Both the position numbers and the translations under genes were made by a program. This document shows positions 12,542 to 47,108 of a stretch of DNA of 64,000 nucleotides, one piece after another; position 1 is the first letter of the stretch, and each line of letters opens with the position of its first letter. The notes beneath the pieces were generated by a model that was given only the letters and a program-made list of their open reading frames with translations, was not told where the DNA came from and ran no database searches. This DNA comes from Promethearchaeota archaeon (lineage in GTDB: Archaea; Asgardarchaeota; Hermodarchaeia; Hermodarchaeales; Hermodarchaeaceae): assembly GCA_048938385.1 (NCBI GenBank), contig JBHLMG010000001.1, forward strand, positions 160,001 through 224,000, read 5' to 3'.

Positions 12542-12887
12542 GGACGGGAGCCCCGACGGTTGACAACCCTTCCTGACGCCGTGCTCACAGCCAGGTCTCG
12601 GACCCGGATCTCAGAAGCATCTACAGTACAGGCTTACGCTGCTCCCTCCCGGGTCTCGCTGGGTTCACCTGTTTAAGGCGATTCAGCCCTTCCTACGAAA
12701 AGCCTACCGCCACCAGCGATCCTCTGAGGCGGATCGTCACAGCCACGAACAGCGAGTCGTACACCAGGTCAGAAAGCCTAACATCGGCATTCAGCCTGCC
12801 TTATAGAGCATTTGCAGAACAGGGGAGCCTTAGCCAGCCCGTAGCGGTGCTGCGGGGCTTCTAGCCCCCCGCCTAGGCTCACCGTCC
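12542..12887 (-). ncRNA. ffs: Archaeal SRP (7S) RNA, with extra hairpin in Alu helix 3
   Basis: Terminal helix GGACGG..GAGCC/GGCTC.CCGTCC; helix 8 motif GACCCGGGAGGGAGCAG; GGGGGG..TCCCCTG helix 3. Confidence 0.9.
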
Positions 12888-19328: not shown

Positions 19329-20652
19329 TTATCCTAGCTCGTCAAATGTGTGAATTCGTAGTTTCACAGGTTTTTTGACGATATTGCCAATGCGTACACC
19401 AATGATTAGTCCGACTCCTCGCTCTTCTGCAATATCGATGAGTCGTTGGGTGACAACGCCATCTAACAGAAGCGTACTAGCCTTCTTTAGATTCTGAAAT
19501 TCGTTGGCAATTTCGCCAACATGCGTTTCTTTTATCGGTTTGAATTTCTCGTCGAGAATTACTGCCGTCATGGTTTGTTGAATTTTTCGGGCTTGCTCTA
19601 AGACTGAGTCAGGGATTCCTAAATCCCGAGGTTTTGGTACCGTGGAGGGCACTTTAGCTCGAGAGCTCCTTGCGGTGCTTCGCTTCGTGTCTCTTGTCGT
19701 GCTTCGGCGTACTGTTTTTACTTTCTGCGTTGTTGTGCGACTACGCCGTTTGGTTTTAACGGCTACCTTTGGTGGAGCACTTTTCCGTTTTATTTTCCCA
19801 AGGACTTCTTCAGCAGAAACTCTATTTCGAAGTGCTTTGGTCACTTCCTTATGAGTAAGCTCTTCAACTTCTCTTCCTGTCGGCGCTCTGGCCACATAAT
19901 CCACTTTTGTAACTTGAGCGAGTTCTTTTAGAATCAGATCTCCACCGCGGTCGCCATCAAGAAAAGCAGTAACAGTTTTACCTTTAGAAAGGTCGACGAT
20001 GAACTTCGGAATTGAGGTTCCTTCAACAGCTATTGCGTTCTTGACGCCAGATCGAAGTAGGGCTAATACATCTGCACGCCCTTCAACGATGATTATCGAA
20101 TCTGAGGATTCAACTTCCGGACCCGCTGGTAGTGCTTCTTTGCCTAGTTTGATGATATCAGCGGTTCGCGATTCTTTCTGAACGGTATCGGTCATTTCCT
20201 GTGAATCAGGTGAAACTTCACCTTCCCAATCGCGTAACAGGTGCACTGCTCGATCGATGATTCGGCGGCGTTTTGCTTCACGGACATCTTCGAGCTTTTC
20301 AAGAGTGATTTTTGCTGCACATGGACCTACACGGTCGACAGTCTCCATAGCAGCAGCGAGTATCGCAGTTTCAGTACGATCAAGGCTACAAGGAATAGTA
20401 ATTGTTCCTTGGGATTTACCGCCTTCAGATTTTAATTCAACTTTTATGCGACCGATGCGTCCCGATTGCTGTAGTTCTCTTAGGTCCAAATCTTCGCCGA
20501 TTGCCCCTTCACATCGGTGATATGAAGTGTAGGCCCTCTGTTTGACCAAAGAGTGCGCCTACAACATCGGGTTTTTCAACAACTCCATCTATTTCGATTT
20601 TTCCACGAATACAATACTTAGTAGTACCAGTGCTTTCTGCATTTGCTCCCAT
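19329..20652 (-). CDS. dnaG: Archaeal DnaG (Toprim, exosome-associated), two exons: 20652-20529 and 20500-19329, 431 aa after splicing
   Basis: Exon 1 [41 protein letters not shown] (GGTGA SD upstream); exon 2 [23 protein letters not shown]; frames joined by removing a 28-nt BHB insert. Confidence 0.92.
20501..20528 (-). other. Candidate BHB (tRNA-type) intron in dnaG mRNA
   Basis: GCCT-ACA-CTTCATATC-ACC-GATGTGAAG-GGGC-AAT: 4-bp helix, two 3-nt bulges, 9-bp stem. Confidence 0.85.
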
Positions 20653-20800: not shown

Positions 20801-21220
20801 TTAAAACTTTGTGCCTTTCGAAGAATTATCAAATTGTTTGAGTCCTTCAATCACTCGAACATGCCAACAAAAAGCTCGACGTAACTGGTTTCGTTCATCC
20901 TGCAACAGGGTGACTCCTCTGCCCTGTAGTTGGGTGGATAGTTGGCGTGCTAGTTGTTCTCCACGGCGATCAAAATCGAAAAGAATCAATAAGGCTTCAC
21001 ATGAGGCTAGCTCATCAGCTAAACTCACAATACTATGACTCGCTAATAGGTGAATTGGACCTGTTAAGCCAAGTCCCCGAAGCGCTGTGATATCTTTAAC
21101 ACCTTCAACGACGACGGCTATTCCTTGGTTTGAGATTTTGCGCAAAAGGTCAATACCTTTTGTAAACTGGTCTTCTAACTGATCTTGACGAGATTGAGTG
21201 GTTTTTTTGCGCGTCTTCAT
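20801..21220 (-). CDS. Small Toprim domain protein (UPF0292-like)
   Basis: VVVEGVKD..AL..LG, LFDFDRRG. Confidence 0.85.
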   Translation of the reverse strand: MKTRKKTTQSRQDQLEDQFTKGIDLLRKISNQGIAVVVEGVKDITALRGLGLTGPIHLLASHSIVSLADELASCEALLILFDFDRRGEQLARQLSTQLQGRGVTLLQDERNQLRRAFCWHVRVIEGLKQFDNSSKGTKF

Positions 21221-30964: not shown

Positions 30965-31030
30965 CCTTGAACACCATCTCAAGCGAAAAGAGGCGAAGCT
31001 ATATAACCTCTTCCCGTCACCCCCAATTTA

Positions 31031-31519
31031 ATGAAATCCTGGCAACAACGACTCGAAGCAGTTTTTTTTAAATCTAATAAAACTGCCATTATCGGCATCG
31101 GTAATGACCTTAAAGCAGACGATGGCGTTGGACCCTACATCATCGACAAACTTCAAACTCAAGTCCCACCACACATCGAACTTATCAACGCCAGCACAGT
31201 TCCCGAGAATTTCATTAACCACCTTATTGAAACTACCCCTTCTCTGATCCTCCTAATCGATGCCGCATTAATGAACTCCAAACCCGGAACTATTCGTCTC
31301 ATCGACAAATCCAACATTGGAGGCGTGGCATTCTCAACCCATCAACTCCCCCTCACCTTCTTCATCGAATACATCGAAAACAACATCAAGACGACCATTC
31401 TCATCCTTGGAATTCAACCTCTCACCGACGAGTTTACCCTCCCCCTCTCTCAACCCGTCCAAACCGCCGCTCAACAAATTATCAAAACCCTAACCCAGCT
31501 TTTCCAACAAAGCGTTTGA
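31031..31519 (+). CDS. hycI: Hydrogenase maturation protease (HycI-like)
   Basis: GIGNDLKADDGVG, TVPENF, IDAA, STHQLPL, GIQP. Confidence 0.88.
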   Translation: MKSWQQRLEAVFFKSNKTAIIGIGNDLKADDGVGPYIIDKLQTQVPPHIELINASTVPENFINHLIETTPSLILLIDAALMNSKPGTIRLIDKSNIGGVAFSTHQLPLTFFIEYIENNIKTTILILGIQPLTDEFTLPLSQPVQTAAQQIIKTLTQLFQQSV

Positions 31520-31562: not shown

Positions 31563-31695
31563 CCCGGCGTAGCTCAACCTGGTAGAGCGTCTGGCTGTAG
31601 GTTAACACCGCACCCTGAGCCATCTTGGCAATGATTCGGTGCCAACCAACGCAGATACCAGATGGTTCCTGGTTCAAATCCGGGCGCCGGGACCA
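31563..31695 (+). tRNA. tRNA-Tyr(GTA) with 56-nt canonical intron (31601-31656)
   Basis: C1:G72, CT-GTA-G, CTGT/GCAG helix. Confidence 0.93.
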
Positions 31696-31746: not shown

Positions 31747-31854
31747 GCCCGTTTAGTGTAGCCAGGTCTATCATCTGGGACTGTCAATGGTCTATACTCG
31801 ATATAGGCCAATGGATCTCCTAGGACTCGGGTTCAAATCCCGGAACGGGCGCCA
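31747..31854 (+). tRNA. tRNA-Asp(GTC) with 30-nt canonical intron (31787-31816)
   Basis: CT-GTC-A; BHB CTGT-CAA..ATGG-ATC. Confidence 0.93.
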
Positions 31855-44993: not shown

Positions 44994-46442
44994 CTAGCCT
45001 TTCACAACTCCCATCGGCACTTGGCTAGCCACCTTTCGTGAAATATCTGCTCCATGAACTGAATCAACGACAATGTGAACATCTTTGTATGCATTCGGTG
45101 CTTCCTCAGCAAGAATTTTCATACCCACAGAGCGAATCACTTTCCCTTTCTGTTCCAGATTGTTTTTGACATCCTTGCCAAAAAAGCGGCGAGTTGCAGC
45201 AGAACGGGACATTGCACGTCCTGCACCGTGACAGGTTGATCCGAAGGTTTCCTTCATCGCCTGTTCAGTACCAACAAGCACATAGGATGCAGTACCCATT
45301 GATCCACCAATCAACACTGGTTGTCCCACTGCTCGGTAAGGTTCTGGAATCATCGGGTGTCCTGGTCCGAATGCTCGAGTCGCACCTTTGCGATGAACGT
45401 AAAGCTTTTTCTTCAAACCATTTAACTCATGAGTTTCGAATTTACAGATGTTGTGTGTTACATCATAGACTAAGTGTAGACCTAGTTTCTCCCAATCCTG
45501 TCCCATCACAGCTTGAAATCCTTCACGAATCCAGTGTGTCATGACTTGTCGGTTGCAAAAAGCAAAGTTTACAGCCGCCTTCATTGCTGCATAGTAGTCC
45601 TGTCCTTCCGGTGATTGCGCTGGCGCGCACACTAATTGTTTATCTGGAAGCCAAATATTGTATTTCTTAACAGCCACGGCCATTCGTTCCAAATAATCTG
45701 TTGCCACCTGGTGACCGAAACCCCGCGACCCACAATGCAACATAATCACAACTTGTCCCTCTTCGAGACCAAAGGCTTTGGCTGTTGATGCATCAAAGAT
45801 CTTGTTGACTTTTTGAACTTCCAGATAATGATTCCCGGCACCCAGCGTCCCCAACTGTGGGCGTCCACGCCTACGCGCCTTTTCAGAAATTCTTGGCGCT
45901 GAAGTGGCTGCTTTATCCATAGAACCGTTTTCTTCGCAATGCGTTAAATCGGCTTCGAGGCCGTAACCATTTTCTACCGCCCACCTTGCCCCGAGCCGAA
46001 GAACCTCATTAAACTGCCCATCGCTCAATCGAATTTTTCCCTTCGAACCCACACCTGCTGGAACACGATTGAAAAGCTCATCCACTAATTCACGGAGTTT
46101 TGGTTTAACATCATCTACGGTGAGATTTGAGCGAATTAAGCGAACACCACAATTAATGTCAAAACCAGTACAACCCGCAGAGATCACTCCCTCTTCCGCG
46201 TCGAAAGATCCAACCGCTCCCATTGGCAACCCATAACCCCAATGGGCGTCAGGCATAGCGAGAACTGGTTCAACAACACCAGGTAGAGTTGCAACATTAG
46301 TCAACTGCTCTACTGCTGCATCTTCGAGCGTCTCAATTATCTCACTCGAACCAATAATCTTTGCTCCCACATTCATTCGGTCTCGGGCTGATTTGTCTAA
46401 CCACCATCGAAACTCATCCTGCCGCTTTAACTTCTCCTTCAT
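44994..46442 (-). CDS. rtcB: tRNA-splicing ligase RtcB
   Basis: MPDAHWGYG, GFDINCG, GAGNHY, HRKGAT, STCHGAGR. Confidence 0.97.
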   Translation of the reverse strand: MKEKLKRQDEFRWWLDKSARDRMNVGAKIIGSSEIIETLEDAAVEQLTNVATLPGVVEPVLAMPDAHWGYGLPMGAVGSFDAEEGVISAGCTGFDINCGVRLIRSNLTVDDVKPKLRELVDELFNRVPAGVGSKGKIRLSDGQFNEVLRLGARWAVENGYGLEADLTHCEENGSMDKAATSAPRISEKARRRGRPQLGTLGAGNHYLEVQKVNKIFDASTAKAFGLEEGQVVIMLHCGSRGFGHQVATDYLERMAVAVKKYNIWLPDKQLVCAPAQSPEGQDYYAAMKAAVNFAFCNRQVMTHWIREGFQAVMGQDWEKLGLHLVYDVTHNICKFETHELNGLKKKLYVHRKGATRAFGPGHPMIPEPYRAVGQPVLIGGSMGTASYVLVGTEQAMKETFGSTCHGAGRAMSRSAATRRFFGKDVKNNLEQKGKVIRSVGMKILAEEAPNAYKDVHIVVDSVHGADISRKVASQVPMGVVKG

Positions 46443-46466: not shown

Positions 46467-46889
46467 TCAGACATCAACTACAACAGTTGCCACATATTGG
46501 TTATTAACCCTTTCAAGAGCAAACCTGTAAAAAGTCACACCTTTTACATGTGTGTGTAATTCCGGCATCTCTTGGCTTCCCATGGCTTTACCTGAAAGCT
46601 GTAACAATTTTTCAGGTGTTTTAACTATCGAATCGATAGCGAAATTGCTGAAAAATACCTCTTCAACTTCAAATTCGATTAATAAATTCGATAACCAGTC
46701 ATAAAGGAGGTGTTCCTCGTCCTTTCCCTGGGCAGTGATTTGGAGGCTAGTTTCGTTTTGCACCTCATCTAGATCATACATTACTCCAAACATCGCCTTG
46801 GCGGCATTAATGAAAACCTCAGCAAGCGTTTGGCCATAGGCACGGAACATTTGATCTGAAGTAATTTCATCAGGATATTCATATTCCAT
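46467..46889 (-). CDS. Archease
   Basis: TSD..F.AYG.TL.E.F.NA, VKGVT, VVVDV; directly upstream of rtcB. Confidence 0.92.
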   Translation of the reverse strand: MEYEYPDEITSDQMFRAYGQTLAEVFINAAKAMFGVMYDLDEVQNETSLQITAQGKDEEHLLYDWLSNLLIEFEVEEVFFSNFAIDSIVKTPEKLLQLSGKAMGSQEMPELHTHVKGVTFYRFALERVNNQYVATVVVDV

Positions 46890-46994: not shown

Positions 46995-47108
46995 TGGCGC
47001 CGGGTAAGGGATTCGAACCCTTGCGGCTCGGAAGCCACAGGCTGCCTTGGGGTGGTAACAATACCTGACCACTCAAGGCCCGCGCCGTAACCACTTGGCT
47101 AACCCGGC
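46995..47108 (-). tRNA. tRNA-Ser(TGA) with 28-nt canonical intron (47044-47071)
   Basis: CT-TGA-G; BHB CTTG-AGT..CAAG-GCA; long variable arm. Confidence 0.93.

Follow-up and report, generated by a model that had tools for sequence, protein, structure and literature searches.

A probable bulge-helix-bulge intron of the tRNA type within the dnaG coding sequence of Asgard archaea

A bulge-helix-bulge (BHB) intron in the cbf5 pre-mRNA of Crenarchaeota was reportedly described by Watanabe in 2002 and by Yoshinari in 2006. This intron is short and located in the coding sequence (Yokobori 2009, PMC2738675); it was described as the only coding-sequence case (PMC2738675) and was still counted as such in a study from 2020 (PMC7714728). 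For HVO_1309 of Haloferax volcanii, both circRNA-seq and cleavage in vitro have confirmed a BHB intron in the 5′ untranslated region (UTR) (PMC7714728). With respect to the endonuclease, Asgard EndA has been reported to be an (alpha-beta)2 enzyme with an L1 loop linked to a broad substrate range (Kaneta et al., PMC5829648), and the relaxed HBh′ class of motifs is accepted as a substrate of (alpha-beta)2 enzymes (PMC5829648). A 2026 preprint on Asgard tRNA introns leaves mRNAs unmentioned, and full-text literature searches retrieved nothing on a dnaG intron or on BHB introns in Asgard mRNAs, in line with an earlier reading of the present locus from its sequence only, which knew of no report for dnaG.

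The locus described here lies in a window of 64,000 nucleotides, i.e., the whole stretch of DNA that was analyzed, from a metagenome-assembled genome (MAG) of 51 contigs and 90% completeness, whose named relatives are Candidatus Hermodarchaeota, including Hermodarchaeum yapensis (Asgard). It encodes DnaG, which we take to be the Toprim primase and exosome subunit of archaea. The two parts of the gene are in different frames, separated by 28 nt (20501 to 20528); these coordinates and frames, first given by the sequence-only reading, were reproduced. Translation of the first part (exon 1) yields MGAN...QTEGL and the first base of a Leu codon, and the remainder of DnaG follows in a different frame, extending from 20498 as far as the stop at 19329. 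If the insert is retained, the exon 1 frame runs into the residues HFISPM and terminates at a TGA within the insert (20511-20509), resulting in a peptide of 47 aa, as originally noted. Joining position 20529 to 20500 creates the junction CUA C/UC GGC (the slash marks the joint), opens a reading frame of 431 aa, and brings back the family motif FGQTEGLLGED; the earlier claim that cutting by the EndA rule restores EGLLG was thereby borne out. Specifically, the NCBIfam profile NF003108 (DnaG) matches exon 1 at profile positions 1-30 (E 1.2e-12) and exon 2 at positions 32-419 (E 9e-138), the single unmatched position being explained by the split codon. Exon 2 by itself scores 460 bits, the family cut-off being 300, and exon 1 contributes the first 30 positions, giving a full-length match. 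Since the profile match is continuous across both exons, the insert interrupts a single domain at the heart of its most conserved segment. For the DnaG homologues, precomputed Pfam annotations include Toprim domains. Directly upstream of dnaG and on the same strand, the window encodes a small stand-alone Toprim protein (139 aa, PRK04017-like; 20801-21220, minus strand).

Table 1. Coordinates of the dnaG locus, of predicted elements of its intron, and of splicing-related genes and inserts. Positions refer to the window except for those with the prefix G000, which refer to contigs of the source genome; a slash within a protein motif marks the junction.
Feature	Position	Strand	Basis or remarks
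dnaG exon 1	20529..20652	-	ATG at 20652 to C at 20529; 41 codons and first base of split Leu codon
Predicted BHB (HBh′) intron, 28 nt	20501..20528	-	Sequence, fold, conservation in relatives
dnaG exon 2	19329..20500	-	TAA stop at 19331-19329; NF003108 match
Helix H, exon strand GCCU	20531..20534	-	4 bp with GGGC at 20506-20503; paired in 100% of cells, with GC/GU and CG/UG variants
Bulge 1, ACA	20528..20530	-	Predicted 5′ cut between 20529 and 20528; ACA invariant in all Hermod sequences
Bulge 2, AAU (AUU in some relatives)	20500..20502	-	Predicted 3′ cut between 20501 and 20500
EndA paralogue, 204 aa	30368..30982	-	PF01974, 67 bits; TIGR00324 endA; PRK09300 positions 2-163 of 350
Second EndA paralogue, alpha-like	G000:C23:325049-325303, outside window		Resembles C-terminal repeat of fused enzymes
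RtcB RNA ligase	44997..46307	-	PF01139, E 3e-174; NCBIfam RtcB families
Archease, RtcB cofactor, adjoining rtcB	46470..46883	-	PF01951, E 4e-33; NCBIfam PRK00407
cbf5 BHB insert, 41 nt	G000:C4:12651-12691, outside window	+	CUGG-AUA...CCAG-AAA, inside motif I; removal gives GIINLD/KPPGPTSHEV
EF-2 paralogue insert, 31 nt	G000:C23:40400-40430, outside window	-	GGGG-AAA...CCCC-AAU; removal gives EEQRRG/ITIKSA
Roadblock/LC7 gene insert, 29 nt	G000:C23:131117-131145, outside window	-	CCGU-UGA...GCGG-AAA

The minimum-free-energy (MFE) structure of the 81 nt around the junction (-24.7 kcal/mol, z = -2.1) contains the BHB. Its central helix, GCCU/GGGC, is flanked by the 3-nt bulges ACA and AAU, the bulge being situated 3′ of the helix on both strands; the inner stem h′ comprises 9 bp (20527-20519 with 20515-20507, CUUCAUAUC/GAUGUGAAG) and is capped by the loop ACC. 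The outer helix h consists of a single G-C pair (20535/20499), which closes bulge 2. Thus, of the structure put forward in the sequence-only reading, the 4-bp helix, the two 3-nt bulges, and the 9-bp stem were recovered in the MFE fold, but, with an outer helix of one base pair, the motif departs from the strict hBHBh′ form and is to be classified as relaxed HBh′. A longer outer helix, GGUCAAA/UUUGGACC, was considered and discarded, as its pairing is lost in relatives. Archaeal tRNA introns at position 37/38 have the same placement of the bulges. Cuts after base 2 of each bulge produce exactly the frame-restoring junction, and the excised segment would extend from the third base of bulge 1 through the 9-bp hairpin and the strand GGGC to the second base of bulge 2. 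The position of the cut in bulge 1 is fixed by the restored frame together with a naturally joined sequence, contig L175, described below. As estimated from a genome scan, loose BHB motifs (4+4 bp) occur in about 2 of 10,000 combinations of position and length; here, a single combination restores FGQTEGLLGED, and that one has 4+9 bp.

It is the comparative data, rather than the motif alone, that carry the case for an intron. All 17 other Hermodarchaeia genomes possess an insert at the same site, with a length of 28 nt in each of the 14 belonging to the same genus and of 29-31 nt in the three from a sister genus; 11 additional metagenome contigs from several studies have it as well and contribute further compensated variants. 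Across Hermodarchaeia, the loop is free to vary, whereas the stem and helix H are retained. Among 16 distinct sequences, 96.9% of the pair cells hold standard pairs versus 39-55% if the partners are slid, and three pairs are altered on both sides, e.g., C-G to U-A in genome G007. The alignment of relatives, which had been named as a check on the intron, thus supports it both by presence and by covariation. On the DnaG tree, the intron is confined to one clade with a support of 99; it is proposed to have arisen once, in the Hermodarchaeia lineage. Across the Hermod relatives, substitutions at the final base of the intron strand GGG(C/U) mostly coincide with substitutions at the wobble position of the Gly codon that follows, GG(C/U) (window 20499-20506; alignment A1, columns 53 and 60); these two bases are unable to pair, and shared ancestry alone may account for their co-change.

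The same data bear on the explanation that the break is an assembly error or marks a pseudogene, which would suit a formally frameshifted gene in a MAG of 51 contigs and 90% completeness. The insert recurs, however, in over 28 assemblies generated independently in different studies, and Logan contigs bridge it as well. Nor was an intact second dnaG found beside a decaying copy: exon 2 is the sole dnaG match in the genome, and the intron sequence has no second copy anywhere in it. When 25 Hermod-type sequences were compared, 264 of the 349 differences in exon 1 fell on third codon positions, and its codon changes were synonymous in 220 cases versus 77 non-synonymous ones; exon 1 is accordingly under coding constraint, and both exons are subject to purifying selection. 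We consider artefact and decay, both of which had been listed as grounds for refutation, to be effectively refuted.

A survey of 90 dnaG loci from 400 Asgard genomes revealed a different BHB insert of 29-43 nt in other families, located 13 nt upstream of the Hermod site after GGN CAA. This upstream-site intron was present in two of two genomes of family f3, three of three of f7, one of f26, and 23 of the 30 sampled from f9, the last figure being a biased rate owing to the enrichment of the f9 sample for genomes with split matches. One of the f7 genomes is labeled Jordarchaeales at NCBI, and f9 carries the label Promethearchaeota/Promethearchaeia. Applied to these inserts, the cut rule invariably restores FGQ(T/L)EGLL; it holds in four lineages other than the Hermod one, the insert sequences being unrelated. 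On its exon strand, the upstream-site central helix consists of the Gly codon and a C, and the wobble base, be it C, A, G, or U, is always paired with an intron base, the observed helix pairs being GGCC/GGCU, GGAC/GUCU or GUUC, GGGC/GCCU, and GGUC/GACC. This covariation supports a base-paired helix; it also refutes an origin of the insert as a direct repeat, i.e., by target-site duplication. None of the nine observed lengths of the upstream insert is divisible by three. Mapped onto the DnaG tree, its distribution cannot be explained by fewer than 11 changes, and members without the intron are dispersed within f9. The upstream-site intron is separate and independent from the Hermod intron. Presence and absence occur even between species of one genus (loci L120-L169, f9 and others), and most f9 upstream introns begin with an in-frame AGA UAA. 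Within the Asgard survey, no dnaG intron was found in the family putatively holding the cultured Lokiarchaeia, and 65 non-Asgard dnaG loci yielded none either.

These features can be held against translational bypass or programmed frameshifting, in which ribosomes would hop over the 28 nt with the hairpin as signal, as in gene 60 of phage T4. A stable hairpin does follow directly after the would-be take-off region, with a stop codon soon thereafter, and T4 gene 60 likewise has a hairpin after the take-off site and a nearby stop codon. However, matching take-off and landing codons are missing, as CUA precedes the insert and no CUN stands just before UCGGC; the conserved 4-bp exon-intron helix with its two 3-nt bulges is specific to EndA and has no role in hopping; and at the second site this helix covaries with a synonymous codon base. 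Bypass is therefore a highly improbable explanation.

Public protein sets reflect the interruption. Among the 56 closest DnaG homologues, 55 are devoid of the N-terminus and start inside or after the break, the annotated exon-2-only proteins comprising 377-411 aa with various internal starts. The sole contiguous homologue, P0053, is encoded on L175, a JGI contig of 1,524 nt from a Hermod-like organism, which is registered as Ga0395754_008471 of sample 3300036486. None of the papers searched mentions this sample, and no metadata are attached to its cluster. L175 reads GAGGGCCUAC followed immediately by UCGGUGAAGAU, which is exactly the predicted junction, and the flanking bases leave no other boundary. 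With any genome compared it shares only about 70% DNA identity, and no near-identical genomic counterpart was found; its exon 2 is 74% identical to the window. At L175:1140-1190, one extra A in a run of A7 shifts the frame of the last ~80 dnaG codons, which could have arisen by slippage of a polymerase or reverse transcriptase, through misassembly, or as a genuine lesion.

A contig of 408 nt from the metatranscriptomic library X15 closely resembles L175 in exon 1. Over 20529-20646 (118 exon 1 bases), both differ from the window at 18 positions, both share a 110-nt upstream extension, and the alignment of the X15 contig ends exactly at 20529; the five X15 differences listed at L175-variant sites all agree with L175, one of them (20605) on the 408-nt contig alone. 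The match between the two contigs thus rests on mismatch counts, listed variants, and end positions. We consider it somewhat more probable than not that L175 represents a spliced mRNA; it could also derive from an intron-less relative, and DNA can occur in RNA libraries. Under either reading, L175 confirms the intron boundaries. As evidence for splicing of dnaG, L175 and X15 are suggestive and fall short of proof. Run X15 additionally contains an unspliced contig of another relative at a depth of 2. Alignment of four sequencing runs to the locus yielded no joint across the insert; for X15 this follows from the fact that an L175-type exon 2, at 74% identity, lies below the alignment threshold of 80%. 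No read or contig in the runs and contigs searched pairs the unspliced gene with joined RNA of the same organism, no RNA run with the locus itself was found (one has a small share of its words), and the best 120 matches in protein collections include no short Hermod-type fragment across the junction. Loose alignment ends at 20534-20540 were discarded as a splice signal, since they represent intron-less dnaG of other archaea. The four-run alignment speaks neither for nor against splicing in the source organism, and of the RNA check across the junction proposed in the sequence-only reading, a joined form matching an X15 contig was obtained, but no joint in the aligned runs.

As public annotations call exon 2 alone, one might suppose a split or truncated gene whose exons are never ligated, giving rise to the 47-aa peptide along with an internally started exon 2 product, or to a truncated DnaG, with the hairpin acting as an element of cleavage or stability as in the HVO_1309 5′ UTR. 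BHB sites other than coding-sequence introns do exist (PMC7714728), and no spliced RNA was seen from the same organism. On the other hand, the annotated starts are not conserved: they are TTG or ATG codons at different positions and in different frames, several relatives have TTA instead of the in-frame TTG, and the peptide tail encoded by the intron varies with the free loop. Moreover, the motif that is broken is the most conserved one of a single domain, L175 provides a joined, contiguous form, and BHB geometry combined with frame restoration in five lineages, with inserts of 28-43 nt, would be superfluous in a gene of this kind. We regard a split gene as quite improbable, though less so than bypass.

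The enzymes required for splicing an intron are encoded in the source genome (Table 1). The 204-aa EndA paralogue is like the N-terminal, structural (beta-like) repeat of the fused endonucleases, and, judged by sequence, the two paralogues together resemble what is expected for an (alpha-beta)2 enzyme. ARAGORN identified introns in 18 of 31 tRNA genes. Within the window, intron-bearing tRNA genes are indicated by matches of 105-130 nt versus 71-76 nt at 31563-31692 (+), 31747-31851 (+), and 46998-47108 (-), and one long tRNA match is located directly beside the archease-rtcB pair. An archaeal SRP RNA match at 12545-12884 (-) extends over 340 nt versus the 317 positions of the Rfam model.

Three further genes outside the window, cbf5, an EF-2 paralogue, and a roadblock/LC7 gene, harbor inserts with the same BHB geometry and cut rule, whose removal restores conserved motifs; the dnaG intron is thus part of a set. 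In a genome-wide scan, loose BHB motifs (4+4 bp) were recorded wherever their excision would fuse two open frames of coding character. This yielded 180 candidates versus 183 for a slid decoy, i.e., no excess, so the BHB motif alone cannot list mRNA introns. Of the search for BHB motifs at apparent frameshifts that had been envisaged from the sequence, the three restored genes stand, but scanning by motif only remains at decoy level. One candidate of the scan, 31008-31052 upstream of the EndA paralogue, was dismissed as noise because a gene lies there on the opposite strand.

Taken together, the 28 nt at 20528-20501 very probably constitute an archaeal BHB intron in the dnaG coding sequence that is spliced by EndA and RtcB. 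In the pre-mRNA, the exon sequence GCCU would pair with GGGC of the intron over 4 bp, leaving the bulges ACA and AAU, with the 9-bp hairpin stacked on the inner side. The heteromeric (alpha-beta)2 EndA is predicted to cleave this relaxed motif, cutting after the second base of each bulge, whereupon RtcB with archease would join the exons and the intron would probably be circularized; we infer that these two enzymes perform the reaction. The joined mRNA would give the full DnaG of 431 aa and the unspliced mRNA only the peptide of 47 aa. The proposed dependence of DnaG synthesis on the tRNA-splicing machinery is supported by the geometry of the motif, the covariation, the second site, the presence of the enzymes, and the junction of L175.

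Among described systems, HVO_1309 shares with dnaG an EndA-type substrate within an mRNA, which for dnaG is predicted; unlike in dnaG, its intron is located in a UTR and leaves the reading frame uninterrupted. In XBP1, the intron comprises 26 nt. The likeness to IRE1/RtcB splicing of XBP1 and HAC1 is to be understood as an analogy rather than as membership: the common features would be independence from the spliceosome, a short frame-shifting intron, and an RtcB-type ligase, whereas there the nuclease is IRE1, the motif consists of two stem-loops, and splicing is a regulated stress switch. The parallel with unconventional mRNA splicing drawn in the sequence-only reading hence holds as an analogy only, and the data show no regulation of dnaG splicing. 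The introns of dnaG, cbf5, the EF-2 paralogue, and the roadblock gene suggest that some Asgard lineages regularly use tRNA-type splicing on mRNAs, which bears on the origin of intron-containing genes and of RtcB-dependent mRNA splicing. A more far-reaching proposal, which we regard as speculative and rather unlikely, is that the tRNA-splicing machinery is generally used on mRNAs in several Asgard classes, with the dnaG intron as a gate through which the output of an exosome/primase subunit depends on EndA/RtcB activity; if true, Asgard archaea, as the closest relatives of eukaryotes, would possess a prokaryotic equivalent of the regulated splicing of XBP1 and HAC1.

The resemblance to non-canonical tRNA introns (PMC5829648; PMC3241643) extends to the 4-bp helix, the 3-nt bulges, the inner helix, the weak or absent outer helix, the cuts, and the similar sizes; the difference is that the dnaG substrate is an mRNA without a tRNA body. 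The exon strand of its helix H is composed of codons, and this leads to co-evolution between synonymous sites and bases of the intron. The dnaG intron belongs to the known class of archaeal coding-sequence BHB introns, which for more than 20 years was based on one gene, cbf5, so that dnaG is its second host gene family. What dnaG adds is a setting in the archaea closest to eukaryotes, two independent sites, repeated losses inside one family, and the co-evolution of codons with intron bases. Public annotation presents 55 of 55 close homologues as DnaG truncated at the N-terminus; for such genomes, gene calling requires a BHB-aware step. Like the crenarchaeal cbf5 intron, that of dnaG is short, lies within coding sequence, has a relaxed BHB and a host with heteromeric EndA, and was lost in some lineages; the source genome even carries its own cbf5 intron, at motif I. 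The two cases differ in the host gene, in the phylum, which here is Asgard, in the occurrence of two insertion sites 13 nt apart in different families, and in that splicing of cbf5 has been shown experimentally, whereas that of dnaG is deduced from the comparative evidence.
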